Under the pieces are notes generated by a model. The model searched no databases. It was not told the origin of the DNA and worked only from the letters and a program-made list of their open reading frames with translations. From Thermoflexus hugenholtzii JAD2 (lineage in GTDB: Bacteria; Chloroflexota; UBA11872; UBA12225), in contig CAMDTO010000003.1 of assembly GCA_945907765.1 (NCBI GenBank), forward strand, positions 15,813-79,812: a stretch of 64,000 nucleotides of DNA. The letters run 5' to 3'. Position numbers and translations under genes: made by a program. Shown in pieces: positions 26,483 through 52,923 of the stretch; positions within the stretch are counted from its first letter, which is position 1, and each line of letters starts with the position of its first letter.

Positions 26483-26544
26483 TTCGCAGCAGTCGCCACC
26501 TCTTCTGGATGCGGCGTTGCCTTAGCAGCTGACACTTGCGCGAG

Positions 26545-26586: not shown

Positions 26587-26669
26587 GATCGCAATTCTCA
26601 AGATCAATTTCAATGAACTTGCTGCGATGAGTCGCCAAGTAGCTTCTCTCTCGATGGAGCCGTCTACAG

Positions 26670-27677: not shown

Positions 27678-27687
27678 GGCAACGAAG

Positions 27688-28925: not shown

Positions 28926-28929
<4 letters not shown>
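27688..28929 (+). CDS. livM: Branched-chain amino-acid ABC permease
   Basis: LGLNIVVGYAGLLDLGYAAFYAIGAY...RLRGDYLALVTLGFGEI...AIRDDEIAAQGMGIN are LivM signatures. Confidence 0.88.
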
Positions 28930-29752
<823 letters not shown>

Positions 29753-29753
<1 letters not shown>

Positions 29754-37035: not shown

Positions 37036-37524
37036 ATGGATGCGTTGGCGCAGGTGCTCGCCGCGAATGGCCATGCATCGGTCCGCACGTACATCCAGAC
37101 CGGAAACATCGAGTTCCGCCACCCTGGGTCCGATGCATCAGATCTGTCAGCACGTATCACAAAAGCAATCGCCGACCAGTTCGGCCTTCAACCGACAACC
37201 ATCGTGTTTCCTCACTCCAGGCTTCGTCGGGCCATCCTCGGGATGCTTTTTTCAGATCTAGAAGATCGGAACTCCGTAGAAACATTGCACATCTTCTTCC
37301 TTGCCAGTGCACCAGAATCGCCCGACCTCGAACGTCTTTACCAACTGCGGGCAGCCCACGAACGGTTCCATCACGGTCATGAGGTGGCATGCCTTCACGC
37401 ACCCAGTGGCTTTGGTCGGTCCCGCCTCGCCGGTGCGGTCGAACGTGTCCTTGGCGTCAGCGTCACGGCCCGAAACTGGCGGACGGTCACGGCATCGGAC
37501 GCACTCGCAACCGCGGACGAGTGA
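37036..37524 (+). CDS. DUF1697-family protein (conserved N-terminal motif lies in another frame; possible frameshift/pseudogene)
   Basis: MDALAQVLAANGHASVRTYIQTGNIEF... matches the family core (..V.TYIQSGN..F). The family's N-terminal LLRGINV motif is encoded at 36993-37013 in a different reading frame. Confidence 0.6.
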   Translation: MDALAQVLAANGHASVRTYIQTGNIEFRHPGSDASDLSARITKAIADQFGLQPTTIVFPHSRLRRAILGMLFSDLEDRNSVETLHIFFLASAPESPDLERLYQLRAAHERFHHGHEVACLHAPSGFGRSRLAGAVERVLGVSVTARNWRTVTASDALATADE

Positions 37525-37640
37525 TGGTCCGCCGTAGCAATCACCCGCTACGCCAAACGCCCATCACCCACCAGCCATGCGGATTGGCCTCATCCGGTTT
37601 GCCGAGACGATGAGGCAGGTACTCCCGTTCTAGGGGTGAC

Positions 37641-38294
37641 GTGGCGTCCTACAGCCCAACGATGGCGCCAGAGAGCCAGGAGGCAGCTGTGAACTGCATC
37701 GTGTGTGGCTTGCCACTTACAGATGCCTCCACTCCATGCCCTCGATGTACTCAGCGGCGGATCGAAGCCGAATTTGTCGCCACTCTCCCGACACGTCCGG
37801 CACCACCGCGCTCGCTACCAGCGAAGTTCGTCGCTCCGTTCATCCTGATAAGTCTCGGTATCCTCACTGGCGTCAGCCTATTGGGTGGAGCGCAATCAAG
37901 CGGTTCAACCCGTGCCACATGGACCGCGACCCCATCCAGCCCGCAGGAACTCACGGTACTGCTCTTGCGCCAGTACGCCCGCGAAGTGTTCGGTACCGCC
38001 ACATCCCGTTCAGGTGTGGCAGCGTGGTGGACCAGTGTCCTCGACTGGACCGTCGAACCGCCCTACGCAATTGCCCGGACTTCTCTCTCGGACACGGCAC
38101 GCGAAACGAAAGTGACCGTCGAAATCTGTGCAGCCCTGGTGCACTTCGCCACCGATTCACGGCGAGAAGGATTGCGCCTTACTGGCGTCCGTGTTGTTGG
38201 ACAGGACGGAATGGTCTTGATCGACACGATCGTTCGAAACACGGATTTCGACCCGTGCCAAGAACTGTCTGCACGGCCGGTGCGGACGCGCTAA
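37641..38294 (+). CDS. Hypothetical zinc-ribbon + single-TM protein
   Basis: N-terminal CIVCGLPLTDASTPCPRC, a TM span (FVAPFILISLGILTGVSLLGG), and a ~130-aa extracytoplasmic region with no motif I recognise. Confidence 0.5.
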   Translation: MASYSPTMAPESQEAAVNCIVCGLPLTDASTPCPRCTQRRIEAEFVATLPTRPAPPRSLPAKFVAPFILISLGILTGVSLLGGAQSSGSTRATWTATPSSPQELTVLLLRQYAREVFGTATSRSGVAAWWTSVLDWTVEPPYAIARTSLSDTARETKVTVEICAALVHFATDSRREGLRLTGVRVVGQDGMVLIDTIVRNTDFDPCQELSARPVRTR

Positions 38295-38385
38295 CCGCTC
38301 CCTAAAAAGAGAAACGGTTGCACGTTTCACCATCACGTGAACCCTGCGACCGCCATTCCGAACTCGTGACGAGTTTGGCGCCCGG

Positions 38386-39351
38386 TTATTCGACCAAACC
38401 TGTCCGGTCGATCGACTCAACGAAGAACCGTTGGGTGAACAGGTAAATCGAAAGTGGCGGCAGGATCACGAGGAACACCGCAGCCATTACGAGTGCCTCG
38501 TTGAACAGGTCACTTGCCTGCCCACCGGTCGCAGTATCCAGCGACGGAGACAAGACCGAGAGACGCATCGGCAACGTGAAGTACTCCATGCGGTTCAGGT
38601 AGATGAATGGCTCAAAGAAGTCATTCCAATGCCACACCACACTGAAGAGGAACACCACCACGACCGCAGGCATCGCCAAGGGCACCATGATGCGCCACCA
38701 AGTCGCGAAGGCGCTGGCACCGTCGATGCGAGCGGCCTCTTCAAGTTCCCAGGGCAGCGTCTTGAAGAACTGGCGGAAGACGACGACAAAGAGTGCGCCC
38801 TTCAATCCGTGACCAAAGAAACTCGGCACGACAAAGGGCTGATAGGTGTTGATCCACCCGAGGTTCTTGTACAGGATGAACAGCGGAACGATGATCGTCT
38901 GCGGGGGAACAAGGAAGGTGAAGAGCACTAAGGCAAAGAGTGCGTCGCGCCCGGGGAAGCGCACCCGCGCAAATCCGTATCCGACGAATGCGCAACTCAC
39001 CGTCTGCCCGAGTGCCGACCCCAGGGAGATATAAAGACTATTGCTAAGGGACTTCACGTAGGCCATGGAAAAGAATGCCAGCGGATAGTTGATCCAGAAA
39101 AACCCGCTGGGAATCCACACAATCGTCGGGTCCGTCAGATCCTGCGAAGTCTTCAGCGACGTCGCCATGATGTAGAAGATCGGGACCAGGAAGACGAACG
39201 CAATGTCGATCAGCACGATGTAGGTGAATGCGCGTTGGAGGAACGTGATCGAACGTCGACGAACGACCTGCCCATCACGCCACCACTTCGGGCGCTCAAC
39301 AAGGAATGATGTCGAGGATGCCGCGATGCTAGCCATTGCGATCTCCCGCAT
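38386..39351 (-). CDS. Carbohydrate ABC transporter permease (MalG-like), distal pair
   Basis: EAA loop LEEAARIDGASAFATWWRIMVPLAMP, then WHWNDFFEPFIYL. Overlaps the upstream permease gene by 23 nt. Confidence 0.85.
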   Translation of the reverse strand: MREIAMASIAASSTSFLVERPKWWRDGQVVRRRSITFLQRAFTYIVLIDIAFVFLVPIFYIMATSLKTSQDLTDPTIVWIPSGFFWINYPLAFFSMAYVKSLSNSLYISLGSALGQTVSCAFVGYGFARVRFPGRDALFALVLFTFLVPPQTIIVPLFILYKNLGWINTYQPFVVPSFFGHGLKGALFVVVFRQFFKTLPWELEEAARIDGASAFATWWRIMVPLAMPAVVVVFLFSVVWHWNDFFEPFIYLNRMEYFTLPMRLSVLSPSLDTATGGQASDLFNEALVMAAVFLVILPPLSIYLFTQRFFVESIDRTGLVE

Positions 39352-40264
39352 AGAAGACGTACTGGTTGGTGATCCTTACGACCACGAACAGGATGACGAA
39401 GACGACCGCGAAGTAGACCCACCCAAGTGAGGCGGCGTAGCCCAGGCGGAACCCACCGGCGAACGCCGTCTGCTGAATGTACTCGAGAACTTCATTGAAG
39501 GTGTCGGTGAAACTGTCCACAATGGTGTAGACCAGATTCACCAGGATGACCGGCGAAAGCAACGGCAGCGTCACCTTCCAGAAACGGTCCCAGTCTGTCG
39601 CGCCATCCACTCGGGCCGCCTCGTACAAGACAGGCGACACGCTATTCAGGCCCGCAAGGAAAATAAGCATCTGCACGCCGGTCTTCCAGAGCACAAAGAG
39701 CAACCGGTTCAGTAGGTCCGAGACGCCAGCAGCGGCATCCGGGCCGATGTACTGGTAGACGAGCTCTTGAACGTCAATCCCCTGGCTGAGGGTTGCGCCG
39801 CCGACGCCCTGCGCGAAAAGCTGCTTGATCACCTGGGCCGAACCGATCACGAGTGGCAGGAAGAACACGGCCCTGAAACCGATCACCCCCTTGATCTTCT
39901 GGTTGGCGAGAATTGCCGAGAAGAGTGAGAAGATCATGATGACCGGCACATCAAGCAGGTTGTTCTTCAACGTTGCCAGCAACTTCGGTACGAAGCGCGC
40001 ATCGATGAAGAAGGCCTCCTTGTAATTGTCGATTCCCTTCCACTTGAGATCGGTCAGGCTTGTTGCCTGCAACTCGTGGAAACTGAGGAAGAAGCTCTGG
40101 AACAGGGGCCATGCAAGAAAGACCAGGAACCCGACAATCCACGGACTGACGAAAAAGTAGCCTTCAAGCATGCGCTGCGTTGTCAGCGAAAGGCGACGAC
40201 GACGCACCGGTGTGGTCGCCCGTGCCACCGCCAAGTCGTCATCGCGCGAAACTGCAATCTTCAT
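39329..40264 (-). CDS. Sugar ABC transporter permease (MalF-like), distal pair
   Basis: EAA loop LYEAARVDGATDWDRFWKVTLPLLSP. Six hydrophobic spans. Starts 3 nt after the stop of the preceding gene. Confidence 0.85.
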   Translation of the reverse strand: MKIAVSRDDDLAVARATTPVRRRRLSLTTQRMLEGYFFVSPWIVGFLVFLAWPLFQSFFLSFHELQATSLTDLKWKGIDNYKEAFFIDARFVPKLLATLKNNLLDVPVIMIFSLFSAILANQKIKGVIGFRAVFFLPLVIGSAQVIKQLFAQGVGGATLSQGIDVQELVYQYIGPDAAAGVSDLLNRLLFVLWKTGVQMLIFLAGLNSVSPVLYEAARVDGATDWDRFWKVTLPLLSPVILVNLVYTIVDSFTDTFNEVLEYIQQTAFAGGFRLGYAASLGWVYFAVVFVILFVVVRITNQYVFYAGDRNG

Positions 40265-40267
40265 TGC

Positions 40268-42625
40268 CTACCTGCCCTTGCGTTCAAGCGCGTAGCCGTA
40301 CCCACGAATTTCCGCCCCTTCGGGGGTCCGTCGTGAATCAGGGTTGTAGTTGACATAGAGCCGGGTGCCGTCGGCATAGGTGACCCGATTGAAATTGCGC
40401 TGCACTATCTCGTGGTTCATGATCGCCTGACCCGAGAGGAACCCGAAGGTCTCGCGCATCGCCTTATACTCCTGAACCGCAGGATCGATCCAATCTTCAT
40501 ACTGGCTTGAGTACAGCAAGTTGTAGTCGGTCCGGATCAAGTCCGATGAGGGTGCGTACGTCAGCTGGTAAACCGGCTGCATTCCCCACTCGTACTGCCT
40601 GAGCAGCTCGGTCTTGGGGTCATTGCGCAGGTTTGCCCGGATCGTGTGGCGCACCACCAGACCTTGCGTCGCGATGTGATAGACCGGAACCGTGGCATCG
40701 CCAAACGCGTCGAGCGAAGTAACCGGTGCGTCATACACACGGTCCGTGTGACCAAGGACATACGAATTCGCACCCTGAACCATGGCCCCGCCGAGGGTCT
40801 CACGTTCGCGGTCAGCCATCTTCATCCACGTTTCAGCCACTTGACCACGTGATAGCGGGTAGCGGTCGTTCGTGTCAGACATGACCATGTTGCCCATCTG
40901 GCGAAGGACAACGCCGTCAATCCCCATGGCCTTGTGGGTTGGCAGGTCACGCTCGAGGTAGTTGTCCCGGGCAATGATCGGGTTCAGCAGATAGATGCCA
41001 CCAGACCCCTGGAAGACTGGAAGCTTGTTGACACCGCGAACGGTGTCCCAACGTGAGTTGAAGCCGTAGCTCCAGTTGGGCCAGATGTTCCGCAGTCCGG
41101 GGATCTGCCCGATGATGCCTCCGGACGAGAATGTGTAGCCGAACATGTAGTCATCTTCGAAAAAGACCTTGACGCCAAGACGCTTTGCTTCCTGAACCAG
41201 GTTGCGCAGCCGGTCATCCCCACCCAAGGAGCTTTCGGACGGATAGCGCCTTGGCCATCGGCCACGGAAGCCGTCATCAGCCCACCCGATCAGGTGGACG
41301 TCAAACTCCTTTACACCCTTGTTGATGAACTCACCGATGATCGTCAGCGCCTGGTCGAACGTGGTCATGGGCACGAAGTCCTCGCGGAACGAGGTACGCC
41401 TCGTGATCCCCATGAAAAGGTCCAACAAAGGTCGAGGTGGTTCAGCCGCAAGAGGCTTGAGACCCTTCACAAGCATCAGGTAGTCTCGGTATGCCCGGCC
41501 CATGCCAGCGTAGTTTGAGTCATCGCCGGTCAGCAGGACATACCGGACCTGCCGATCACCGGAGAGACGATCTTCCTCAATCTTGTTCACGAAGACACTA
41601 CGACGCCGAGGAATGCTTGCCTGGCGCCGGAAGATGAACTCGGCCGACCCGCGATTGGCATTCATGATGTATCCAGCAAGATAGGCGTTGACGTTCGCCT
41701 GGAACTCACCTTGGGTAACGATCCCGGCGTACGCTCCGTCTTCCTGCTTCAAGCCCCAGATCGGCATCGTCGGCCGCGTAATTGAGTTCCCACCCCGCCC
41801 ACCGCCGCCAATGGTAAAGAGGTTTGCCGCCGCATCTGGCCCGAAGATCTGGGCGGAATAGCGTTGCCGGTATTGGGGGTACTCGGGCTTGAATTCGACG
41901 ATTGCCCCCGCACCATCGGGGACCATCACATAGCCCTTCTGACCTGCACGTGCCGCGCCGAACAAAGGCAGGACCTCAAGGGTCACGATCTTGAAGCACG
42001 TCGGGCTTGTGACAAGCTTGCAGTCCCCGTATTCCTGGATGCCCTTGTCCGGAACCGTCACCTCGAGGAACGGGACGACCCGCCCGTCCAAGGCCTTCTC
42101 CTCGCGGATGACGTACTCCATCGTGAAGCGCATCTTGAACTTGTCGATGTCATACGTAGCGCGGAACCCGCCGGGGATATTGACCGCGGAAATCTTCGGC
42201 TTCTCAGTATTCCAGGTGAGGAGATTCGTCATCTGGCGCTTGGCGTTGGTTGCACTCAATAGGAAGAGCGCGTCCTCCTGCGAGGCCTTCTGCGCCCCCA
42301 ACTGCTCGAAGGGGTTGCTTGCCCACATCTTCCCGCTTCGGCGGTCTTCAACCACGAGCCGCGAATCCGTGAAGTTGGCATGAAGACGCAGTGTCGGTGT
42401 CTCGGCAACCATCGTGAAGCCGTCGGGTAGGGAAGCCTGGTCCACAATCGGCATCGGCGCCAGACCCGCATCAGCCAAGGCGGCTGGAACCTGGGGCGTT
42501 ACCAACGCAATGGATGCCAGGCCGATGGCCATGCGGACCGTCACCATCGAGGCACGCCGGTACCAACCGCCCATCTGCATCGTGCCGAACATCCTCATCA
42601 TTGATCGCCCCTCAACGTGCCGCAT
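40268..42625 (-). CDS. Secreted 785-aa protein, DUF5696-like putative glycoside-hydrolase-type enzyme
   Basis: Signal-like N-terminus (AIGLASIALVTPQVPAALA). The central/C-terminal region has a TIM-barrel-like feel (FDVHLIGWADDGFRGRWPRRYP...RLGVKVFFEDDYMFGY...GIDGVVLRQMGN). The family assignment is recollection only, not a search result. Confidence 0.55.
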   Translation of the reverse strand: MRHVEGRSMMRMFGTMQMGGWYRRASMVTVRMAIGLASIALVTPQVPAALADAGLAPMPIVDQASLPDGFTMVAETPTLRLHANFTDSRLVVEDRRSGKMWASNPFEQLGAQKASQEDALFLLSATNAKRQMTNLLTWNTEKPKISAVNIPGGFRATYDIDKFKMRFTMEYVIREEKALDGRVVPFLEVTVPDKGIQEYGDCKLVTSPTCFKIVTLEVLPLFGAARAGQKGYVMVPDGAGAIVEFKPEYPQYRQRYSAQIFGPDAAANLFTIGGGGRGGNSITRPTMPIWGLKQEDGAYAGIVTQGEFQANVNAYLAGYIMNANRGSAEFIFRRQASIPRRRSVFVNKIEEDRLSGDRQVRYVLLTGDDSNYAGMGRAYRDYLMLVKGLKPLAAEPPRPLLDLFMGITRRTSFREDFVPMTTFDQALTIIGEFINKGVKEFDVHLIGWADDGFRGRWPRRYPSESSLGGDDRLRNLVQEAKRLGVKVFFEDDYMFGYTFSSGGIIGQIPGLRNIWPNWSYGFNSRWDTVRGVNKLPVFQGSGGIYLLNPIIARDNYLERDLPTHKAMGIDGVVLRQMGNMVMSDTNDRYPLSRGQVAETWMKMADRERETLGGAMVQGANSYVLGHTDRVYDAPVTSLDAFGDATVPVYHIATQGLVVRHTIRANLRNDPKTELLRQYEWGMQPVYQLTYAPSSDLIRTDYNLLYSSQYEDWIDPAVQEYKAMRETFGFLSGQAIMNHEIVQRNFNRVTYADGTRLYVNYNPDSRRTPEGAEIRGYGYALERKGR

Positions 42626-42650
42626 GATCCGTGTCCTCGCCCGCCATTCC

Positions 42651-43580
42651 CTACCGGGTGGTCAGTTCATAGAACACTTGGTAGAAAAACTCGTAGGTAT
42701 TGCTTGAAAGGGCAAAGATCAGCGCCGCCAACGCCCAGATGAGGATGACTGTCACCGCGCCTATTCCGTATGTCGCCAGTGTCCGGCCCGTGCCGAAGTC
42801 ATGGATAACCCGAATGTGCGTATAGAATAGGTATGCCACCCAAAGCCTCGTTGCCCAACTGATGGTCATGAAGAGTGATCGCTCACTTAGGGTCATGGAG
42901 TTGGTCAGCACGAATGTCGCGACCGGTGCGATGACGATATACGGTCCAAAACTGAAGGCCGCGCTGACGCAGATGTCACGGAACGAACCCTCGCCAAAGA
43001 AGATCATCGCGATCGCGTAGTGCGCGAGGCTCCAGGTGACGAACGGAATGATGATCCGCACCCCTTCCTGAAGGATTGAGGTGTCCTCAGGATTACCTCC
43101 GTACAGGAATTGGGTCATGCCAAATGTCACGGTGCGGCTTATCTGTTCCATGACGGCCTCGACCGACCACACCGTGTTGTCGATCGCGAAGAACACGAAA
43201 TGGAATCCCATGACGGCCATGACCAGACCGCGCGCGGCGATCAGGAGTGCAACTGCAAAGAGGACTGATGACCAGTCACCGCTCCGCTTGAGTTCCCAGA
43301 AACCTTCCTCGGGATGCATTGCCACGAAAAGTAACTGTCGGAACCACTTGGTGCTATACCACTGGGCGTCTTCGACAAACCGGCGCCATCCCGTCGCCTC
43401 GGTCCTACGGGCTGCCCGAGGGGCCGTCGCAAACCGGCGCGGAAAGTACGGGGCGCGGGGCCTTCCGGAGACAGCTGCGACATCGACGGTCTTCTCGACC
43501 GCCAACCCTTCCATCAACGCGGCGCCACCGGATTCACCAGCCAACGATCCGCCAGGCAATGGGACTGTCGTTCCACTCAT
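42651..43580 (-). CDS. Yip1-domain-like polytopic membrane protein
   Basis: ~90-aa soluble N-terminus, then FVAMHPEEGFWELKRSGDWSS and five hydrophobic spans, which is the Yip1/YIP1-family architecture. Its start codon shares 1 nt with the preceding gene's stop. Confidence 0.6.
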   Translation of the reverse strand: MSGTTVPLPGGSLAGESGGAALMEGLAVEKTVDVAAVSGRPRAPYFPRRFATAPRAARRTEATGWRRFVEDAQWYSTKWFRQLLFVAMHPEEGFWELKRSGDWSSVLFAVALLIAARGLVMAVMGFHFVFFAIDNTVWSVEAVMEQISRTVTFGMTQFLYGGNPEDTSILQEGVRIIIPFVTWSLAHYAIAMIFFGEGSFRDICVSAAFSFGPYIVIAPVATFVLTNSMTLSERSLFMTISWATRLWVAYLFYTHIRVIHDFGTGRTLATYGIGAVTVILIWALAALIFALSSNTYEFFYQVFYELTTR

Positions 43581-45079
43581 TAGAGGCCTCCGCGGTCGTC
43601 GAAACGCATTGCCATCAGCGCGCGCCCAATCCGGCGTGCACCCCAGACAACCAACGCAATCCCGGCGATCGATGCAGGCAGGACCAGCCCGAATTCCTCG
43701 CGGACGAAGTCGTGACGAAGCTCTCCAAACGCCAGCGACCAGCCCGCGTTGTTCCGCGCAACCGTGTACTCCTCCATCGCCTTGAGGTACTCGCCACGCT
43801 TGAAGAAGGCCTTCGCCAGTCCGGTATGCGCGAGTTCGAAATTGCTGTCCCGACGGAGGACCTCACGCCAGATCACTTCGGCCTCGGCGTACTTGCCGTC
43901 GAAGAAGAGGCGGCTGCCCTTGTGAAGGAGTTCGGCAAACTCGGTTGGTCGGAATACCTGCACGTTGTTCCGATTTGCATCGAGCACGTAGAGGCGTCCC
44001 TCGTTCCCGACGGCAAGGCTCTGGGGCAACTCGAACTTGCCTCGCTGTGAGCCACGCCCACCGAAGATCGCAAGCAGGTTTGCCGACTGGTCGTACTGGT
44101 ATATCCGGCCACTGTTGAAGTCGAGTGCCGAGACAATCCCCTGACTGTCAACGGTCACATCGACGAACTGCGGTTTGATTGTCTGATTCCCGCGACGTTC
44201 GATCTCACCATACGCCTTTTTGCCCGACGTGTAGACGTCGTTGCCGATCGAGTTCAGCTTCTTGATTTGGTCGACATCACCAAGGGGTGAGACCGTGTAG
44301 ATGAAGCCTCGTTCATCCACGAACAGGTTGGCATGGTGTGTTGGCAATATCTTTGAGATCTGCTTCTTCTGCTGATCGGTCGTGAACATCCGGATAAGCA
44401 GGCGTCCGAGGTCGAACACGAGACGGTTCGCACCAAAGAAGCCCCGGAACGTCCCTTCACTGTCCAGCAGGAAGATCCCCCGGAAGTCGCCACCACCATT
44501 CAAGACGTACAGGTATCCGCGGCGGTCAATCACAACCTTGTTGGGCTGGTAGACCTGATCATCCTCGAGGAGGCGTGAGGTTGGCTTGCCAAACTGCTTG
44601 ATGAACTCTCCGCTCGCCGTGTACGCAACCAACCGGCTATTGCCCCGGTCAGCAACCCAGATCTCCCCTGGCGCGGTGATGAACACACCCTCTGGAGCAT
44701 TCAATTTGCCGGGACCCTCGGCACTGCCGATGGTCAGCATGTAGGTGCCGTCAGGTGCGAACTTGAGGACGCGATTGTTACCCGTGTCTGATATCCAGAC
44801 ATTGCCGGCATTGTCGATATAGATGTCAGCCGGGTTCTTGAAAGTCCCGCACTTCTGGTACATCCCGTCGATCTCGAAGTCGTAGATGTAAGGAAGTGGC
44901 GAGGCAAGCGTCCGCGCATCCTTGTCGAGCGTCCAGGAATACTCCCGGTCCGCCGACGCAACGGGCACCCCGCCCGGAAGCAGCCCGACCACGAACGCTG
45001 CGACCAGCACCAATGCCGTCGCGAACGTGACAAGACGCGCCAACCTCGTGCGCCGACGCGACTTGAACTGCTTACTCAC
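43580..45079 (-). CDS. NHL-repeat beta-propeller + TPR protein with N- and C-terminal hydrophobic anchors
   Basis: N-terminal TM (LVTFATALVLVAAFVVGLL). NHL-like repeats (GNVWISDTGNNRVLKFAPDG; EIWVADRGNSRLVAYTASGEF; RLYVLDANRNNVQVF). TPR-like FDGKYAEAEVIWREVLRRDSNFELAHTGLAKAFFKRGEYLKAMEEY. C-terminal TM (LVLPASIAGIALVVWGA). Confidence 0.7.
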   Translation of the reverse strand: MSKQFKSRRRTRLARLVTFATALVLVAAFVVGLLPGGVPVASADREYSWTLDKDARTLASPLPYIYDFEIDGMYQKCGTFKNPADIYIDNAGNVWISDTGNNRVLKFAPDGTYMLTIGSAEGPGKLNAPEGVFITAPGEIWVADRGNSRLVAYTASGEFIKQFGKPTSRLLEDDQVYQPNKVVIDRRGYLYVLNGGGDFRGIFLLDSEGTFRGFFGANRLVFDLGRLLIRMFTTDQQKKQISKILPTHHANLFVDERGFIYTVSPLGDVDQIKKLNSIGNDVYTSGKKAYGEIERRGNQTIKPQFVDVTVDSQGIVSALDFNSGRIYQYDQSANLLAIFGGRGSQRGKFELPQSLAVGNEGRLYVLDANRNNVQVFRPTEFAELLHKGSRLFFDGKYAEAEVIWREVLRRDSNFELAHTGLAKAFFKRGEYLKAMEEYTVARNNAGWSLAFGELRHDFVREEFGLVLPASIAGIALVVWGARRIGRALMAMRFDDRGGL

Positions 45080-45984
45080 GACTTGATTCCCGAATGTGCC
45101 ATCGTCTGGATGACCTTGGCCTGCCGAAGCAGGAAGACAGTGATGGTCGGCGCAGTCATCAGGAATGCTGCGGCCGCCTGCGCACCCTGGCGTGCAATCG
45201 CCGCCGGACCATTTGTCAGGCTGATCATTGCGACGCTGACCGTCTTCATTGCCTCGCTGCGCGTGAACACCAACGGGCTGAAGCTGTCATTCCACAACTG
45301 GATGAAGCCGAAGATTAGCAGGGTGTTCCATGCAGGAGCGACATTCGGCATGACGATCTTCCAGAAAATCGTCCACTCATGCGCACCATCGACACGTGCC
45401 GCCTCGATCAGCTCATTCGGAACCGCGTTGTCCATGAACTGCTTCATCATGAACAGCCCGTAGCTCCATGCGAGGGCCGGCAGGATCAGCGCCCCATAAG
45501 TATCAATCAGGCCGATCTTCTGGACCACGAGGTATTGCGGAATACGCGTCACCTGCGGGGCAAACATCAGGGCCGCGACGATCATTCCGAAGATGAAGTT
45601 GCGACCCGGCAGGACCCTCGCCTTGGAGAGCGGATACGCACACATCGAGCACATCATCACTTGGAGAAGCACGGTCGTCAGCACCACGAAGATACTGTTG
45701 AACAGGTACCGCGTGAACGGCACTGCCAAGGCATTCGTGGCAAGCAACAGGTCCTGGAAATTGTCCAGGGTCGGACGCCGAACCAGGAACGGTGGCGGGA
45801 AGAGCAGGAGCTCCTCGAGCGGCTTGAACGCCGTCGAAATGACGTACACGATTGGCAGCATCGAGAAGACCGCCATCGGGATCAGGAACAGGTACGAAGG
45901 CGCGGGTGTCTGCTTCCGTAGAAACCGCAAGACCTTCGATACCGAAAAGTCAACGGTTTGAGGTCGTTGCACGAGTACGGCCAT
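45076..45984 (-). CDS. Carbohydrate ABC transporter permease (MalG/LplC-like), proximal pair
   Basis: EAA loop LIEAARVDGAHEWTIFWKIVMPNVAP, then LWNDSFSPLVF. 4-nt overlap with the NHL/TPR gene. Confidence 0.85.
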   Translation of the reverse strand: MAVLVQRPQTVDFSVSKVLRFLRKQTPAPSYLFLIPMAVFSMLPIVYVISTAFKPLEELLLFPPPFLVRRPTLDNFQDLLLATNALAVPFTRYLFNSIFVVLTTVLLQVMMCSMCAYPLSKARVLPGRNFIFGMIVAALMFAPQVTRIPQYLVVQKIGLIDTYGALILPALAWSYGLFMMKQFMDNAVPNELIEAARVDGAHEWTIFWKIVMPNVAPAWNTLLIFGFIQLWNDSFSPLVFTRSEAMKTVSVAMISLTNGPAAIARQGAQAAAAFLMTAPTITVFLLRQAKVIQTMAHSGIKS

Positions 45985-46053
45985 GGCTCGCTCTCCAAAT
46001 CAATGGGTCAGACCGGTACCAGTTGGCACCGGACACCCACTTCCGACGGCTGA

Positions 46054-47007
46054 TCAGTATTCGTTCTTCGAAGAAAACATGCGCATGAGCAGTCGGCCAA
46101 GGCCGAATGTAAGAAGGAACAGGAAGACTGCAACCGTGGTTGCGTACCCCATCTCAAACCGGATGAACGCAAAGTCGTACATATGCGCCACAATGGTGTG
46201 GCCGGCATACAACGGGCTGGGTAAGCCGGCAAGTGATGTCGCAACTTCGAAGACTGAGAACCCGGCCACCACGGCCATGACACTGCCGAAGAGCAACTGC
46301 GGCTTGATCATCGGCAGGGTGATGTACCAGACCTCCTGAAGTGGGTTCTTGATCCCGTCCATCTTTCCGGCCTCATAGAGGTCCGAGGGAACAGTCTGCA
46401 ACCCAGCAAGGAACACAAGGAATCCAGTTCCCATGCTCATCCAGAGCGCCACGAACATGATGACGGGCATGATGGCCGCCTGTTCGGCAAGGAACTGGTA
46501 GGGCTCATCAATCACCCCGATCCCAAGAAGCCAGTTGTTCAGGTACCCGTACCGGTCCCCGGAGAACACGATCTTCCAGACGACGCCCATTGCCACCGCA
46601 CCCGTGATTGACGGCGCGTAGAAGCACAGCGCGAGAGGCGTCTTCAACTTCAACGGGTTGATGAGCCAGGCGAACATGAATGATAGGAAGAACCCGACTG
46701 GGCCGGTAATGATCGCGAACGTCAGGGTGTTCGCGATGGCGATGATGAACACATCGTCCTCAAGGAACAGCAACTTGTAGTTGCTCCACCCAATGAACCG
46801 CGGAGCCTCAAGTACATTGAAGTAGGTGAAACTCAGGTACACCGCGGTCAGGACCGGGGCCACCACGAAGACGGCGAAGAAGATCAGGAACGGTGCCATG
46901 AACAGGTACGACGTCCCGAATTTCTGCCAGAACAGCGCCAATCCTTCCGGACGTGCGGCCGTGGAGACCATCCCGCGCGATGTCATCACCTCAGTGCGAA
47001 CCGCCAT
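46054..47007 (-). CDS. Sugar ABC transporter permease (MalF/LplB-like), proximal pair
   Basis: EAA-like loop LYEAGKMDGIKNPLQEVWYITLPMIKP. Six hydrophobic spans. SD GGGGGGAAACGG lies before the ATG. Confidence 0.85.
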   Translation of the reverse strand: MAVRTEVMTSRGMVSTAARPEGLALFWQKFGTSYLFMAPFLIFFAVFVVAPVLTAVYLSFTYFNVLEAPRFIGWSNYKLLFLEDDVFIIAIANTLTFAIITGPVGFFLSFMFAWLINPLKLKTPLALCFYAPSITGAVAMGVVWKIVFSGDRYGYLNNWLLGIGVIDEPYQFLAEQAAIMPVIMFVALWMSMGTGFLVFLAGLQTVPSDLYEAGKMDGIKNPLQEVWYITLPMIKPQLLFGSVMAVVAGFSVFEVATSLAGLPSPLYAGHTIVAHMYDFAFIRFEMGYATTVAVFLFLLTFGLGRLLMRMFSSKNEY

Positions 47008-47096
47008 GCCGTTTCCCCCCTGTTCGAACCACTGGAATGCTTCCGTAGCCCGGAACCACCGTTCCGGGCAGACCTACTGCGACCGCAAGTCGTTCG

Positions 47097-50000
47097 TCAC
47101 CCGCGCCGGTACATCGACTTGTCAACCTTCACGCCGAACTCTTCCTGCTTCTTGGCGAGTTCCTTGTTGATGTCATAGATGGCATCCTCTAGTGCCTCAC
47201 GCGGGTTCATTCCTTGCAGGACGACCCGGTTCCAAGCATTCAGGACGTGACGGCCGGTGAAATACCCGCCCAGCACCACCGGAGGTTCGCGGAACCACCG
47301 CCACTGCTCCATGATGGACGCAATGTCCTTCTTGGGCCACGGCAGTGCTTGGAGTGCCTCCAGGTTTGCCGTGTTCCAGCGTGCTTCAACACCGATCAGT
47401 GCCTCGAGTTCGCCACCGAAGCGCTGCTGGGCGTCCTTGGACGACCACCACTTCACGAACTCCCAAGATTCGGCCTTGTGCTTTGATTGCTCGAAGATCA
47501 CCATGCTCGCCCCGGTGCCACCACTGGCCCGGATGATCGTGCCGTCCGGCAACTTCTGACCAGTCTGCGGGTCAACGCACGGGATGACGGTGCCCATCGA
47601 CGTTGTGGAACCACACCGGTGCCCCGGCATTGGCCGCATTTCCCACCGACCGGTCAATTCCGGAGCCGCTACCGAAAGGGCGATGTAGACCCCGTAGCCC
47701 GCTACACCGATGGGCTGCTCACCCGTCCGCATGCGGGTGAAGAAGTTCGCCTCACGCGGAATCTTGTAGTTGCTATAGAGGTCAGTCCACTCCTGGAACC
47801 CGACCAAGGCCTCCGGGGTGTCGAGTGACGACCGGCAGGAACCATCCGTGCACTTGTAGTACTCGCCACCATTCTGGAACAGGAAGGGCGTGAACCCGAC
47901 CGCGCCGTCAGTCACTCCGACACCCGTTGGCGGCGGGTAGTAGAAGTCCAACCCGTTCTGCTGCAGTTTCAACAGCGCGTCATACAGGTCGTCCCACGTA
48001 TCGGGGGGCTTGATCCCAAGTTCACTCAGGATGTCCGTCCGGTAGAAGGTCATCGCAAAATCCTGGGTCTCAGGAATTGCCCAGTTGCCTTCCTCGTTCG
48101 TGAACGGCACCCGGTACCGGAACGGGACAAGCGCCCCTTCCCGGAACCGCTTGGCAATCTGCGGATAGTCCGGGAAGTTGGTCAGGTTGACGAGACCCTT
48201 CCGCACTGCAAAGTCAACCGGAAGCTGGCTTGGCACACCAACGGCGACGTCAGGCGCTTCGCCGGCGGTCGTCGCCAGCAATAAGACAGACCCTGCACCT
48301 TCACCAAGGCTTGCAGGCGGGATCACGTGGACATTCACCTTGATCCCGGTGTTCGGGGTGAAATCGTCCTCGATCATGTCCTTCATGATCTGGCCCCACT
48401 CGGTACCACGGCCAACCCACACATCAAGGACGGTCTCCTTGCTGTCCTTGGCGTAGCTGCTTCCCAAGCCAGTGTAGTCACGCGTGAAGGAGGAGATGAA
48501 AGTGCTCAGAGACGCAATCATCTGTTCGAACACGTTCGCCTGGACACGTGGCAATGGGGTATTCGCCGAATGGACGGTGAGCCAGTCAACCGCCAGCGGG
48601 TGGTTCTGCAAGTTAAGCAACCAAGTTGCCAGAATTCCCTGGCTTCTCATGAAGTCTTCAAGCAGACGGTGAATCTCGGCCGGCTTGTCAATCATCCGCT
48701 GCAATTGCGATTCGACGACCCGGAACGCCGAGGAAGCATCGTTCTTTGCCCGTCCGATCTCCTCCATGCGCGATGCCTGCAGTTCCAGGCGATCGTGCAG
48801 CTTCTTGAGGCGCGGCACAAGGGTCGGGATCTTCTCATGGAGGTCCCATTCCATGTTCACGTCCGGTTGGGACCCGGTGATCATGAGCATCTCGCGGCTC
48901 ATCTGGCTCATTTCGGAGAGCATCAGGTCGAGTTCGCGCATGGTCTCAGACATGAAACCAAGGGTGACGTCCATCTGGACGACATTCTTGCCCTTGGTGA
49001 GATGGAAAAGGTAGGGCTTGCCCTCCGCCAACTGGTTCTCGCGCATCGTTTCCAAGCGCCAGTCCCGCTCCATCCGGAACAGGATCCCACCTGCCTCACG
49101 AAACGGCACCTGGCCGTTGATTCGCAGTGACCGCATTCGGGGCCGTCGTCCTGCCCACCCCTGCCAGATGTTGAAACTCAGCTCGTATAGGCCTTCTTCA
49201 GGAACCTCCACTTCCCACCGTACCCACTGACCGGGCAAGCGCCACCGCCACCAACCAAAGGAGTTCAGTTTGAAAAGACCATCGGCGTAGGGACTTGCGA
49301 GAGCATCGAAGTTGACCTCACCGCGGACCGTCGGATCGGACTTCACCGTGGGGTTCTCGGCCTCAACAAGCGTGGCCGTCTTGACGTCGACTTCCTTGAG
49401 ACCCTTTGACTTCCAGATCTTCAGTTGCTCAGCGTAGACGGGAACGATCTTGGGCGAATGCACCGAGATTGACGCAAGGGCGATGGTCTCTCGCACCGTC
49501 TGGAGACGCAGGCGTTGACGCCCTTGTTCAAATAGGAACTGGAAGGGCGCGTCGTAGCGTCCGTCGGCATCCTCGATGGTCTTGGTCTCCCACTGGGGAG
49601 CCTCAATCTGTGCCGGTCGGACGTCGTTACCCTGGTTGTCCTTCTTCACCGCGCCGTTGTCTTGCCAGACCCTCTGGAAGACCACACGCTTGGCCTCACG
49701 GAACGGCAACTTGCCATTGATGAGCAAGTCGCGTTGGACCGACGCTCGCTTGCCGGGAATCGGGTAGTACTCCATCGTGATTTCGTAAAGACCAGTGGCG
49801 GGGACGTCAATTTCCCATTCGACCCAACCATCATCCTCTGTCCAGAGGAGCGTTGGTCCCGGGCGTCCCTTGAAGTTGTCGACCTTCTGCAGGCCTTCGG
49901 ACCCGCCGCTGCTCACGTAGTTGACTGCCGGGATCTTGATGTCAATGCCGGTCGTGGCTTTGAACTGCTTGTCCCAATCAGCCTTGACATCGGCGTAGAT

Positions 50001-50303
50001 CGGCTGACCCGCCAGATCTTCGGGAAGCATGTCCTCGAAGAGCTTGTCAGCCTTCGGTGCCCCAGGCATTGGCTTTGCCGGGGGTTGCGCCTGAGCAGTT
50101 AGGCCACCACCGCTTTCGGGCATGCTAGCCGAGGTGGCCCCGGCGCCGACCGGCTGCGCCAGTGGCGCAATTGCCATCGCAACAACCGCAACGGCAACCA
50201 CCCGGTGCGCCCAAGCTGTCAGGCGTGCGCCACCCACCGATCGCCACCGCGGCATCTGGGGCACATGCCCCCGCACGACGTTCACGATCGAACCCCCTCG
50301 CAT
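47097..50303 (-). CDS. Giant (1068 aa) extracellular solute-binding protein with two tandem CBM-like modules N-terminal to a family-1 SBP domain
   Basis: Start supported by GGAGGaacgcgATG. Signal/TM (VVAVAVVAMAIAPLA). Duplicated ~140-aa modules (WVEWEIDVPATGLYEI...LLINGKLPFREA versus WVRWEVEVPEEGLYEL...LRINGQVPFREA). The C-terminal half is SBP-like (VLDVWVGRGTEWGQIMKDMIEDDFTPNTGIKVNVHVIP...). Confidence 0.8.
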   Translation of the reverse strand: MRGGSIVNVVRGHVPQMPRWRSVGGARLTAWAHRVVAVAVVAMAIAPLAQPVGAGATSASMPESGGGLTAQAQPPAKPMPGAPKADKLFEDMLPEDLAGQPIYADVKADWDKQFKATTGIDIKIPAVNYVSSGGSEGLQKVDNFKGRPGPTLLWTEDDGWVEWEIDVPATGLYEITMEYYPIPGKRASVQRDLLINGKLPFREAKRVVFQRVWQDNGAVKKDNQGNDVRPAQIEAPQWETKTIEDADGRYDAPFQFLFEQGRQRLRLQTVRETIALASISVHSPKIVPVYAEQLKIWKSKGLKEVDVKTATLVEAENPTVKSDPTVRGEVNFDALASPYADGLFKLNSFGWWRWRLPGQWVRWEVEVPEEGLYELSFNIWQGWAGRRPRMRSLRINGQVPFREAGGILFRMERDWRLETMRENQLAEGKPYLFHLTKGKNVVQMDVTLGFMSETMRELDLMLSEMSQMSREMLMITGSQPDVNMEWDLHEKIPTLVPRLKKLHDRLELQASRMEEIGRAKNDASSAFRVVESQLQRMIDKPAEIHRLLEDFMRSQGILATWLLNLQNHPLAVDWLTVHSANTPLPRVQANVFEQMIASLSTFISSFTRDYTGLGSSYAKDSKETVLDVWVGRGTEWGQIMKDMIEDDFTPNTGIKVNVHVIPPASLGEGAGSVLLLATTAGEAPDVAVGVPSQLPVDFAVRKGLVNLTNFPDYPQIAKRFREGALVPFRYRVPFTNEEGNWAIPETQDFAMTFYRTDILSELGIKPPDTWDDLYDALLKLQQNGLDFYYPPPTGVGVTDGAVGFTPFLFQNGGEYYKCTDGSCRSSLDTPEALVGFQEWTDLYSNYKIPREANFFTRMRTGEQPIGVAGYGVYIALSVAAPELTGRWEMRPMPGHRCGSTTSMGTVIPCVDPQTGQKLPDGTIIRASGGTGASMVIFEQSKHKAESWEFVKWWSSKDAQQRFGGELEALIGVEARWNTANLEALQALPWPKKDIASIMEQWRWFREPPVVLGGYFTGRHVLNAWNRVVLQGMNPREALEDAIYDINKELAKKQEEFGVKVDKSMYRRG

Positions 50304-50339
50304 CGCGTTCCTCCGACTTCACCGCCGCCAAGGCGAGTG

Positions 50340-50358
50340 CTGTCTTTCTAATTGACAG
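50340..50358. promoter_or_regulatory. Inverted repeat CTGTC-n9-GACAG in an AT-rich patch upstream of the giant-SBP cluster
   Basis: ctgtctttctaattgacag, 37 nt upstream of the ATG at 50303. It overlaps a TTGACA hexamer (50352-50357, plus strand). Confidence 0.3.
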
Positions 50359-50614
50359 ATTGAATGAGCCAACCGCAGCAGGGTACCCGAGACGGCGGAA
50401 CGATTCGACGCAGCCCCTACACCGCTACCCGCCTAGGCCGGCGGCAGTATATCGGCGGCCGGGGCACCCGGCAACAGGCCTACCGCGGCCATGCCGCTAT
50501 ACTCCCCGCCGCGCGACAATCTATTCGCTCGCTGGCGCTTTCGCAACACGCGATGTGGCGATCATCGTGTGCGGACCCGACTGCGATGCCACCCACCAAA
50601 CGGGAAATCACTCG

Positions 50615-51193
50615 ATGGTTCTCAGCGACCGGACGATCAAGGAACTGATTGCCCAAGGACGGATTGGCATCAAGCCGTTCGATGGAACTTCGGTGCAACC
50701 GTCAAGCGTCGACCTCCGACTCGATTTCCGGTTCCGCGTCTTTCGAAGCACGCGTCACAGCCATATTGATCCGCGTGTCGACCAAGCCGACCTGACCGAA
50801 CTGGTCACCCTCGGTCCCGACGAACCATTTGTCCTGCAACCCGGCCAGTTCTGCCTTGGAAATACGCTGGAACAGATTTCGCTTCCCGACGACATCGTCG
50901 GTCGCCTTGAGGGCAAGAGTTCCCTCGGTCGTCTTGGTCTTGTCATCCACTCAACTGCGGGGTACGTCGATCCCGGGTTCCGTGGTCGCCTGACCCTTGA
51001 ACTCAGCAACGCAGCACCGTTGCCAATCCTGCTGTTCCCGACGATGAAGATCGGGCAACTCAGTTTCTTGCAGATGTCGACACCCGCCGACCATGCGTAT
51101 GGATCTGGGCCCTTGGGCAGCAAATACCAGGGCCAGGACGAACCGACCGCTAGTCGCATTCATCTCGACTTCGCGCGCGACCGGCACGGATGA
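50615..51193 (+). CDS. dcd: dCTP deaminase
   Basis: MVLSDRTIKELIAQGRIGIKPF...VQPSSVDLRL...GKSSLGRLGL.IHSTAGYVDPGF.G.LTLEL.N. Start trimmed from the track ORF at 50162. Confidence 0.9.
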   Translation: MVLSDRTIKELIAQGRIGIKPFDGTSVQPSSVDLRLDFRFRVFRSTRHSHIDPRVDQADLTELVTLGPDEPFVLQPGQFCLGNTLEQISLPDDIVGRLEGKSSLGRLGLVIHSTAGYVDPGFRGRLTLELSNAAPLPILLFPTMKIGQLSFLQMSTPADHAYGSGPLGSKYQGQDEPTASRIHLDFARDRHG

Positions 51194-51258
51194 CGGTGCC
51201 GGGCAACACACCGACATCTTCGCCATAACCCTTGATACCTGCGCTATAGTCGGAGGCG

Positions 51259-52923
51259 ATGCCAGTTCCACCACGCATCATGCAACCGACGGCCCGGCGA
51301 TCCTTCCTCGCCCTGACCGGGGTCGGTGCGGTGGCCGCTAGTGCAAGCCTTGCCGGATGCCAGGTCAACCCGTTTGCCCCGACATCAGATTCGCAAGCCC
51401 TGCGAACCTTCCTGTGGAACTTCGACACCCTTGATCCCGCATTCACTACAGGCGTCCTCGAAGCCGAGTACGTCGTGCACATCTTCAGTGGGTTGACCGC
51501 ACTGAATGACAAGCTTGAGGTCGTGCCCGACCTTGCCGAGAAATGGTCGGTTAGCCAGGACGGACGGATCTACACCTTCACGATCCGCAAGAATGCCCGG
51601 TTCCACGATGGGCGCTCCGTCACCGCCGCCGACGTCAAGTTCAGCATCGAACGCGCCGCCGACCCACGCCTTGGGTCGCCGGTCGCGCTGACGTACCTCG
51701 CTGATATCGAGGGCTTTGCCTCAAGACTGTCCGGGCAGACCCCCGAAGTGTCCGGAGTGCGCGTGAAGGACGACAGCACCATCGAGATCGCACTCGATGA
51801 GCCGCGCGTCTACTTCCTCGCCAAGCTCACCTACCCGGTCAGTTATGTCGTGGATCGGCAGAATGTCGCGACCGGTCCAGACTGGTGGTTGCAACCGAAC
51901 GGGACCGGCCCGTTCAAGGTAGCTCGCCTACGACCGGGAGACACCCTCTCACTCGTGCGCCACGAGGCCTACTACGGCACCAAGCCGGCGCTGACTGGCG
52001 TGGAGTACCTTGCCGTCGCACCCGTGGAAGCCTATGAGGCCAATGAAATCGACATTGCGGTGGTCGACCTTGCCGACATCGAGCGTGTGACCGACAAGAG
52101 TGATCCGCTCAATCGCGAGCTCCGCGTCCGCACCGACCTCGATATCCAGTACCTCGCGATGAGCGTCACCGCCAAGCCGTTCGATGACCCGAAGGTGCGT
52201 CAGGCGTTCAATCACGCCTTGGACCGCGATCGCATCGCAACCGTGACCCTGAAGCGCACCGTCATCAAGGCCGATGGCATCCTGCCTCCCGGCCTTCCCG
52301 GCAAGAGTGACCGCACGCGGGGACTGGACTTCGATGTCTCCCGCGCCCGGCAACTTATCTCGGAGTCGAGTTACCGGGATACGCAGAACTTCCCCGAAAT
52401 TTCACTGACGGTCATGGGGAACCGCACGGCACCTAATCCCGAGATCAATGCAATCGTGGCAACCTACCGGCAAAGTCTGGGAGTCGATGTCCGCGTGCGC
52501 CAAATGAACCGCGATGACTTCATTACAGCAACCCAGAAGGATCGCGACCGGCCCCAACTTTGCATGACGGGTTGGATTGCCGATTACGCAGACCCGCAGA
52601 ATTTCCTGGACATCCTGTTCCATAGCAAGAGCCGTGAGAACGTCTCGCGCTATGCCAATCCCGAAGTCGACCGGCTTCTCGAACGAGCGCGCAGCGAACG
52701 TGACAATGCCATCCGCATGAAGCTCTATCAGGATGCCGAGGTGCAGATCATCCAGGATGCGCCGTGGGTGCCTATGTGGCACACCAAGCGATACACGTTG
52801 GTCAAACCGTGGGTCCAAGGCTACACCGGAACTTCGGTGGTCCAACCGTGGCTGAAGGCGATATCGCTGAAGGGACGCCCCGAGTTGGTTGGTGCCACGC
52901 CAACCGCAAGCCGTCGGGCCTGA
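51259..52923 (+). CDS. Peptide/nickel-type (family 5) ABC substrate-binding lipoprotein; no cognate permeases adjacent
   Basis: Tat-like signal plus lipobox ([24 protein letters not shown]). Family-5 SBP features ([28 protein letters not shown]; [14 protein letters not shown]). Confidence 0.85.

Follow-up and report, generated by a model that had tools for sequence, protein, structure and literature searches.

The subject of this analysis is a run of eight genes in Thermoflexus hugenholtzii JAD2 (Chloroflexota), lying within a 64,000-nt stretch of contig CAMDTO010000003.1 (assembly GCA_945907765.1, positions 15,813 to 79,812 of the forward strand) that we refer to throughout as the window. 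The eight, here g1 to g8, encode a giant solute-binding protein (SBP) and two pairs of MalF/MalG-type permeases (F1 with G1, F2 with G2) of an ATP-binding cassette (ABC) importer of the CUT1 family, together with three envelope proteins whose genes lie between the pairs: an NHL/TPR membrane protein, a Yip1-family protein and a DUF5696 protein. This gene content and order is an ancient unit that crosses phyla, and not a chance neighborhood. We put at roughly 0.55 the probability that the eight genes form one operon and a conserved carbohydrate-uptake module, which would capture a glycan at the cell surface, trim it and import it through two coupled CUT1 translocators that share an ATPase.

A scan of a genome collection, seeded with the closer DUF5696 set (A2; the broad alignment, A1, is without a conserved stretch of 7-10 residues) and limited in its sample to Chloroflexota, returned 17 loci. 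All 13 that span the whole module carry the full eight-gene order (giant SBP, F1, G1, NHL/TPR, Yip1, DUF5696, F2, G2), and the remaining four are cut by contig ends and collinear; DUF5696 identity extends down to 49-52% among these loci, and their flanking genes differ between two groups. The identical order is present in Paenibacillus prosopidis, Gorillibacterium, Gracilibacillus and several metagenomic Bacillota, in line with the similar neighborhoods in Firmicutes that an earlier reading of this DNA, from sequence only, had mentioned. It is kept in every annotated context reached with a DUF5696 seed, even around the most divergent DUF5696 (22% identity), and look-ups seeded with NHL/TPR recovered the module in three cases of four, the fourth being a solitary gene at locus L028. 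A metagenome scan seeded with Bacillota DUF5696, its loci scored by hidden Markov models (HMMs) built from known modules, gave 79 loci: 42 complete and canonical, and 33 cut by a contig end but collinear. The other four deviate systematically; two are half-modules, one was scored as rotated, and in one an additional F2G2 pair precedes the module. Complete modules also occur on contigs labeled as human gut metagenome (L072, L091, L097, L098, L102 and L104); several of these contigs are long and highly covered, that of L098 reaching 216 kb at ~142x coverage, and the gut DUF5696 proteins are ~26-29% identical to the Paenibacillus query.

Each module protein of the window finds its best match in its positional counterpart, and gene spacing is tight or overlapping in the window and in L018. 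Orthology is one-to-one, and trees are congruent, across complete loci that number more than 60 and represent two phyla or more. The co-occurrence in related genomes that the sequence-only reading had anticipated is borne out by this neighborhood analysis, which finds the order unchanged in both phyla. Loci for sugar ABC transporters abound, frequently without an ATPase gene, and neither the terminator scan nor the fold of the hairpin-bearing spacer in this operon is statistically exceptional, all of which would suit two ordinary CUT1 pairs that happen to adjoin three unrelated envelope genes. The recurrence of the same eight families, in the same order, in that many complete loci of two or more phyla, as well as the fusions of NHL and Yip1 described below, speaks against such an accident; on the synteny data chance adjacency is refuted, and we regard it as extremely improbable.

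The domain calls made from the letters (SBP, permeases, NHL/TPR, Yip1, DUF5696) agree with Pfam and NCBIfam searches, the TPR matches being weak. BPD_transp_1 is found in g2, g3, g7 and g8, in the order MalF/UgpA-like then MalG/UgpE-like, twice over; the best NCBIfam models are UgpA/MalF for g2 and g7 and GlcU/UgpE/MalG for g3 and g8. All four carry the loop EAA-x3-G-x9-I-x-LP (g2 has 6 hydrophobic segments), and the two complete pairs that had been read from the sequence, each a MalF-like and a MalG-like permease as expected of CUT1, were recovered by Pfam, NCBIfam and the loop motif alike. In a neighbor-joining tree the permeases fall into four clean clades, F1, F2, G1 and G2, each with all ten modules compared, and so the duplication of the permeases predates the spread of the module, both pairs having been kept in every complete module compared. 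Identity between F1 and F2, and between G1 and G2, is 25%, against 30-54% for positional orthologs; by these sequence comparisons F1G1 and F2G2 are ancient paralogs. The Chloroflexota copies group in the permease trees with a Limnochordia-like Bacillota module (L026), and the G+C content of 38001-50000 is 0.574-0.597, compared with 0.60-0.64 in the surroundings; together these suggest an old horizontal transfer between Chloroflexota and Bacillota.

In g1, SBP_bac_1 (1.1e-22) is confined to residues 634-960, where SBP_bac_8 also matches (1.9e-14), and the closest solved SBP to the family profile in the PDB is Lin1841 (2.3e-24), placing g1 among the binding proteins of cluster D, or MalE-like, type that serve CUT1 importers. 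The rest of its length comprises an anchor at residues 28-46, which is its one hydrophobic segment, two homologous repeats of ~160 residues each (127-293 and ~330-479; internal duplication E = 1e-12) and a conserved helical region at ~450-610. This architecture is kept in Bacillota orthologs, which align over residues 100-1059 at ~40% identity. The Bacillota modules have in addition an ordinary lipoprotein SBP that is very divergent between modules, the giant SBP being conserved; the small SBP sits directly 3' of G2 in L023 and L079. We considered whether it could be a copy of the C-terminal domain of the giant SBP and rejected the idea, as the two align only in part, at ~23-28% identity, and small SBPs from different modules vary greatly among themselves.

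The three inserted proteins had been described as having no known role in ABC transport, and family searches place none of them in a well-characterized family of unrelated function. The largest of them, g6, matches DUF5696 (PF18952) over profile positions 8-612 of 612 (E = 1.6e-136; 456.7 bits against a cut-off of 25.6) and consists of an N-terminal signal or anchor, a beta-sandwich, a (beta/alpha)8 barrel and a C-terminal beta-sandwich. Searched against the PDB, the family profile finds DagB/ZgGH129 (1e-15) and NagBb (7e-12), with significant similarity that takes in both terminal domains and, of the barrel, the first half. An AlphaFold2 model of g6 (mean predicted local distance difference test, pLDDT, 81.6; predicted template-modeling score 0.84) was matched by Foldseek over its whole length, ~740-780 aligned columns, to the three-domain fold of the glycoside hydrolase (GH) family GH129, that is to DagB, an alpha-1,3-(3,6-anhydro)-D-galactosidase (5opq, E = 3.4e-31), and to NagBb, an alpha-N-acetylgalactosaminidase (5wzn); E-values for NagBb and DagB are ~1e-28 to 1e-31 and target-normalized template-modeling (TM) scores 0.71-0.76 (0.72-0.76 for NagBb), and the next ranks are taken by GH101, GH36, GH31 and GH13. 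As modeled, g6 is a membrane-tethered protein with the fold of a retaining alpha-glycosidase, and a putative extracytoplasmic glycosidase is a plausible reading of it. Between NagBb and DagB, too, nothing but the nucleophile Asp is shared, and the authors of the DagB study proposed a separate family for DagB (PMC5698469). The DUF5696 protein differs from both in that identity is only 14-15%, in that the nucleophile position varies within DUF5696, and in that proteins of this family are tethered to the membrane, their genes in every case forming part of an ABC transporter module. We do not file DUF5696 in GH129 despite the common fold, its catalytic residues being candidates only, and it would be a further, uncharacterized branch beside GH129 and DagB. 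The family is large: in 1.84 billion representatives it accounts for 3,961 clusters (50% identity) with E <= 1e-30, a count that rises to 7,019 with E <= 0.001. It has members in Paenibacillus, relatives of Bacillus, Limnochordia, Chloroflexota and contigs labeled as human gut metagenome. No mention of DUF5696 or PF18952 was found in the open-access full-text literature.

The NHL/TPR protein, g4, has an N-terminal helix or signal (residues 4-37), a six-bladed NHL propeller (48-378; 71.4 bits against a Pfam cut-off of 20), a TPR-like region (380-461) and a C-terminal transmembrane helix (463-490) that is retained in Bacillota orthologs. Its AlphaFold2 model (pLDDT 87.3) displays the propeller and paired helices over residues 380-461, where TPR_16, TPR_2 and TPR_19 score 17-19 bits, under their cut-offs; weak TPR matches recur in several orthologs. 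The best Foldseek matches are the NHL domains of TRIM71, Lin41 and Brat (target-normalized TM-score ~0.8), and the structure search returned generic NHL domains only, without an enzyme-specific match. Its neighbor g5 belongs to the Yip1 family (PF04893; 40.1 bits against a cut-off of 28.6, residues 88-284), with four hydrophobic segments above threshold, four to five in orthologs, and an N-terminal extension of ~90 residues that is absent from the Bacillota orthologs (~205 residues); positional orthologs are present in the modules inspected. In ~45 of the 120 best g4 homologs, as well as in L023, L026 and 10 metagenome loci, NHL and Yip1 are fused in a single protein, which argues that g4 and g5 function as one unit. 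By predicted topology all the accessory domains are extracytoplasmic and membrane-tethered.

A Yip1-family protein in company with an ABC transporter has a precedent in Bacillus, where YknW modulates assembly of the transporter YknXYZ (PMC4887032). Both systems encode a polytopic Yip1-family protein with an ABC transporter; the likeness between g5 and YknW is one of shared Pfam membership. YknYZ, however, is an exporter of the MacB type that has a membrane-fusion protein, whereas the module has type I importer permeases, and its Yip1 is linked to an NHL propeller outside the cell, in many cases within one polypeptide. In one Gracilibacillus locus (L025, 14357-19816) a MacB/YknXYZ-type set comes directly after the module; it has two ABC ATPase genes, with those for a YknX-like membrane-fusion protein and an FtsX-type permease between them. 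This type of transporter is the one known to use YknW, and the adjacency is possibly coincidental.

The surroundings of the module differ between the phyla. Bacillota neighbors include, by locus, LacI with GH26, a GDSL esterase and GH2 in one, GH43 and GH51 in others, GH20, and GH29; among 139 non-redundant flanking ORFs (open reading frames) the families met most often were, by count, 12 SBP_bac_1, seven GH43, five GH51-type arabinofuranosidases, five AraC, four ArsR-type helix-turn-helix proteins and three LacI. Most of the neighboring glycosidases, though not all, are without a signal peptide. By gene content the Bacillota copies lie in arabinan- and mannan-type loci, and many of them have the adjacent regulator and carbohydrate-active enzyme (CAZyme) genes that define a Gram-positive polysaccharide utilization locus; in the window neither is present among the flanking genes assigned to a family.

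The variant loci bear on how the module is built. In one half-module (L079, 5124-19968) the order is LacI, an NHL-Yip1 fusion (777 aa), an enlarged DUF5696 protein (1063 aa), F2, G2, an ordinary 428-aa SBP and the mannan-type GH130 and GH113, and another (L108) has the same NHL-Yip1 fusion, DUF5696, F2, G2 order; neither has a giant SBP or F1G1 within ~6 kb upstream of NHL-Yip1 or ~8 kb downstream of G2. In the rotated loci L086 and L087 the order is NHL, Yip1, DUF5696, F2, G2 and then the giant SBP, with F1 and G1 after it in L086. It follows from the half-modules and rotated modules that the giant SBP goes with F1G1, and NHL-Yip1 and DUF5696 with F2G2 and, where present, the small SBP. The sequence-only reading had taken the cluster as one envelope machine; the conserved unit stands, and it is better described as two coupled sub-systems, given that half-modules without the giant SBP and F1G1 exist. 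An additional F2G2 pair lies upstream of the giant SBP in L057, L059 and L062, and in L023 (19541-22163) a second giant SBP opens another module ~5 kb downstream. Some genomes thus seem to have more than one module, in tandem or otherwise.

As first described, the cluster is without a nucleotide-binding subunit, and a search of the whole 64-kb window for Walker A with LSGGE motifs revealed no ATPase of the MalK/MsiK type, inside the cluster or outside it, nor is there an ATPase gene inside any annotated homologous module. The sole match to both motifs in the window belongs to a LivG/F-like pair (28926-30502) that ends a plus-strand, amino-acid-type ABC cluster at 25130-30502, composed of one ORF at 25130-26482, two at 26670-28929 and the two ATPase genes, with Walker A at 29055 and 29894 and LSGGE following the second. 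From its ATPase motifs and gene order we take this cluster as LivKHMGF-like and unrelated to the module. That the ATPase is often shared and encoded elsewhere had been pointed out, and the lack of an ATPase gene is ordinary for the CUT1 family.

We hypothesize the following mechanism, in which the assembly, the catalysis, the division of labor between translocators and the substrate are all inferred. The giant SBP, with its two beta-sandwich repeats and conserved helical stalk, would be anchored by its N-terminal helix, capture an oligosaccharide or glycan at the surface and feed F1G1. The tethered DUF5696 protein would remove or cleave an alpha-linked unit, since its nearest structural relatives (GH129, GH101, GH36 and GH31) carry out such chemistry. 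NHL/TPR, by way of its C-terminal helix, and Yip1 would hold DUF5696 and the F2G2 translocator together, and F2G2 would import a second product or a second substrate, served in Bacillota by the small, variable lipoprotein SBP. Both translocators would be energized by a shared MsmX/MsiK-type ATPase encoded elsewhere, and the imported sugars finished by cytoplasmic glycosidases, which are encoded beside the module in Bacillota and not in the Thermoflexus window. Capture, trimming and uptake of a glycan, as already proposed for this cluster, fit the GH129-type fold, the extracytoplasmic topology and the CAZyme-rich neighborhoods in Bacillota; we infer these activities from that fit.

A number of observations weigh against this proposal. 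The NHL/TPR family is not exclusive to the module, as a solitary gene of 486 aa, 51% identical to g4, lies at 10001-11461 of L028, in a housekeeping setting; its contig is 1 Mb long, and the 10 kb to either side of the gene contain no module. The carbohydrate-binding signals of the g1 repeats are all sub-threshold: matches to the CBM35 structures 2w47 and 2w1w are short (E = 0.015), and in one ortholog CBM_35 scores 22.9 bits (cut-off 28), Golvesin_C reaching 15-18 bits (cut-off 31.6). Chloroflexota modules are without the small SBP that would serve F2G2. They have housekeeping genes as neighbors, CAZyme and regulator genes being absent from their vicinity, and Thermoflexus reportedly does not grow on single carbon sources, sugars included (PMC8129789); the same genome paper names sugar importers in general terms only. 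The two remaining difficulties concern the active site of DUF5696 and open the way to different accounts of the module.

The first of these is that the position expected to hold the GH129/GH13 nucleophile is variable in the family (strand end 571-574; R575 in g6), as are the positions 6-8 residues beyond I569 (R575-M577). An HMM alignment of a 60-sequence profile to NagBb stops at NagBb 427, equivalent to I569 in the window protein, short of the nucleophile D435 (D486 in DagB). Variability at the canonical position would suit a scheme with no extracellular trimming, in which DUF5696 is an inactive glycan binder and NHL/TPR-Yip1, as a ligand sensor or gate, regulates or primes F2G2. NHL-type propellers act as bacterial extracellular sensor domains, for example in PknD, and that precedent, together with the usual role of NHL propellers and TPRs as binding domains, the lack of an enzyme-specific Foldseek match to g4 and the lack of a regulator in the window operon itself, lends the scheme some appeal. 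Across 60 diverse members that are 18-35% identical, however, E679 (60/60), N665 and H738 are invariant and D237 (57/60), D584 (53/60), R593 and D643 (49/60) nearly so, a pattern to be expected of an active site rather than of the surface of a lectin. Near-invariant D584 lies 7-9 residues beyond the expected nucleophile positions, and D584 and E679 are candidates for the catalytic residues. Neither NHL/TPR nor Yip1 has a cytoplasmic signaling domain, and only the Chloroflexota Yip1 has an N-terminal extension, of ~90 residues and uncharacterized. We consider a sensor or gate of this kind unlikely.

The second difficulty is that an invariant putative active site stands beside very different CAZymes (acting on mannan, arabinan, hexosaminide or fucoside), which is awkward for simple trimming. 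Invariance whatever the CAZyme neighbors suggests one common chemistry, and this would suit a module that served turnover of envelope material or glycoconjugates, not polysaccharide foraging. Its substrates would be glycopeptides, glycoproteins or glycans of the bacterium's own wall or S-layer; the GH129/GH101-like enzyme would split sugar from aglycone, the sugar entering by CUT1 and the peptide by Opp with an orphan SBP. Consistent with this, NagBb and GH101 enzymes cleave GalNAc or Gal-GalNAc (GalNAc, N-acetylgalactosamine) from Ser/Thr of glycoproteins, Thermoflexus has a proteolytic lifestyle, and the Chloroflexota module lies among housekeeping genes, beside an orphan OppA/DppE/MppA-like SBP in three diverged lineages. 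The Bacillota operons with GH43, GH51, GH26, GH2, GH130, GH113 and sugar regulators, on the other hand, are typical of plant hemicellulose use, and the structure that matches best, DagB, has oligosaccharides of carrageenan as its substrate and not glycopeptides. The OppA-like adjacency was seen in Chloroflexota only and its intervening genes differ, such that it may be a coincidence of local synteny. To turnover as the function of the module we give little credence.

That orphan SBP is a family-5 protein (SBP_bac_5) whose best PDB matches are peptide, DppE, OppA and MppA binders. In the window it lies 956 nt upstream of the module, divergently oriented, with a dCTP deaminase gene between and no Opp permease genes adjoining. 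Copies adjoin the module in three diverged Chloroflexota lineages, namely the window, L029 (1221-2951, minus strand) and L030 (2251-3822, plus strand); those of the window and L029 are 50% identical in different genomic settings with different intervening genes, and the L030 copy is distant. Chloroflexota modules have no small family-1 SBP alongside. Our assignment of the orphan to the module is tentative; the second binding protein that seems to be missing could be this one, or its presence could hint at a link to glycopeptides or murein peptides. The sequence-only reading had found no second binding protein, which holds within the cluster and is doubtful beyond it, considering the extra lipoprotein SBP of Bacillota and the adjoining orphan of Chloroflexota.

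Returning to glycan uptake as the preferred function, a more elaborate form of it can be drawn, in which Yip1-NHL/TPR physically organizes the two translocons, the giant tethered receptor SBP and DUF5696, as founder of a new glycosidase family, into a stable cytoplasmic-membrane 'utilisome' of Bacillota and Chloroflexota, where a bound glycoconjugate is cut at the surface and its two products pass through two dedicated channels. In Chloroflexota such an assembly could deglycosylate glycopeptides and pass the peptide to the adjoining orphan OppA-like SBP. We offer this tentatively, as an idea more probably wrong than right. In the SusCD utilisomes of Bacteroidota, surface glycan-binding proteins, a surface glycosidase and a transporter are held in one complex. 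The likeness is one of proposed logic only, with binding modules, a tethered glycosidase and a transporter as core and variable CAZymes around it; homology is absent, as are SusD and any SusC or other TonB-dependent transporter, and the module belongs to Chloroflexota and Bacillota.

The genes themselves are consecutive minus-strand ORFs from 50303 to 38386 (Table 1). From g1 to g8 the junctions are gaps of 89 and 69 nt, overlaps of 4 and 1 nt, gaps of 25 and 3 nt and an overlap of 23 nt, exactly as first read from the letters and in full agreement with the ORF list. The strong Shine-Dalgarno sequence noted for the start at 50303 and an AT-rich patch upstream of it (~50365-50341) are both present. 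A pattern scan of 37500-51300 gave a single sigma-70-like match, the TTGCCG/TATACT site, whose TATACT hexamer is invariant upstream of the module in six Chloroflexota loci (alignment A6; proteins down to ~60% identical). In four to five related loci the DNA 5' of this promoter contains another conserved element, ATAGATTG..GAGTATAGCG (A6 columns ~320-360; intergenic, 50480-50540 in the window), which may be a divergent promoter of the dCTP deaminase gene or an operator. The hairpin reported in the 89-nt gap is there, with a perfect stem of 9 bp; the local stem is strong and the spacer as a whole does not fold exceptionally (z = -0.78). This hairpin is possibly an mRNA-stability or processing element that favors the SBP segment, and at the terminator-like hairpin past g8 the operon probably ends. 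Scanned against Rfam, operon and leader matched no family.

Table 1. Features of the module and its immediate surroundings, in window coordinates (position 1 is the first nucleotide of the window).
Feature	Coordinates	Strand	Details
g1, giant SBP	47097..50303	-	1068 aa; from the ORF list
g2, permease F1	46054..47007	-	317 aa
g3, permease G1	45076..45984	-	302 aa
g4, NHL/TPR membrane protein	43580..45079	-	499 aa; GTG start
g5, Yip1-family protein	42651..43580	-	309 aa
g6, DUF5696 protein	40268..42625	-	785 aa
g7, permease F2	39329..40264	-	311 aa
g8, permease G2	38386..39351	-	321 aa
Promoter-like site, TTGCCG - 17 nt - TATACT	50446..50474	-	Would give a 5' untranslated region of ~140 nt
Shine-Dalgarno, GGAGG	50310..50314	-	6 nt 5' of the g1 ATG at 50303; read from the sequence
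Perfect 9-bp hairpin, no U-tract	47048..47069	-	Inside the 89-nt g1-g2 spacer
Terminator-like hairpin, then TCTTTTT	38311..38328	-	58 nt past the g8 stop; pattern match only
Orphan OppA/DppE/MppA-like family-5 SBP	51259..52923	+	Pfam SBP_bac_5, 1.2e-77

The flanks of the module in the window hold genes for dCTP deaminase, the family-5 SBP, RNase PH, a 217-aa hypothetical protein, DUF1697, a radical SAM protein, a Mur ligase and isoleucyl-tRNA synthetase. The cluster had been described as without a regulator, and none was found among the family-assigned ORFs of the five flanking it on each side, where four ORFs on the downstream side matched no family. The 217-aa ORF (37641-38294, plus strand) is convergent with the end of the operon and has an N-terminal CxxC...CxxC zinc-ribbon-like motif and one hydrophobic segment; it has no match in Pfam or NCBIfam, and its position is kept only in the close relatives L001, L002, L004 and L005 (43-96% identity). 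Genes of 212 aa in L029 and 227 aa in L030 that adjoin the family-5 SBP were compared with it as possible equivalents and rejected, there being no similarity.

Gram-positive sugar ABC importers are usually seen as three-gene units, an SBP and two permeases, that rely on a shared ATPase. The module resembles such CUT1 systems (TC 3.A.1.1; MalEFGK2, AraNPQ-MsmX of B. subtilis, MsiK of Streptomyces) in its SBP_bac_1 domain, its MalF/MalG-like permeases with EAA loops, the order SBP-F-G, the ATPase encoded elsewhere and, in Bacillota, the glycosidase and LacI/AraC genes beside it. It departs from them in having two obligatory and non-interchangeable permease pairs with three conserved genes between them, and an SBP 2-3 times the normal size, whose anchor looks uncleaved and which has a pair of beta-sandwich repeats as well as the conserved helical region. 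No description of a CUT1 system so composed was found in open-access full texts, nor was a published characterization of this type of cluster, as had been suspected. The building blocks are familiar; their obligatory combination with a doubled translocator and a large glycosidase-like family is undescribed.

The module adds five obligatory genes to the usual three-gene importer, and it is common. If our reading is correct, DUF5696 would be a new glycoside hydrolase family, a function would be at hand for bacterial Yip1 and NHL/TPR membrane proteins, and no earlier ABC importer system would have had two translocators that depend on each other. Culturable Paenibacillus species carry the module, which may therefore be open to direct testing. 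The annotation of loci for plant-fiber utilization in soil and gut Bacillota would be improved as well.

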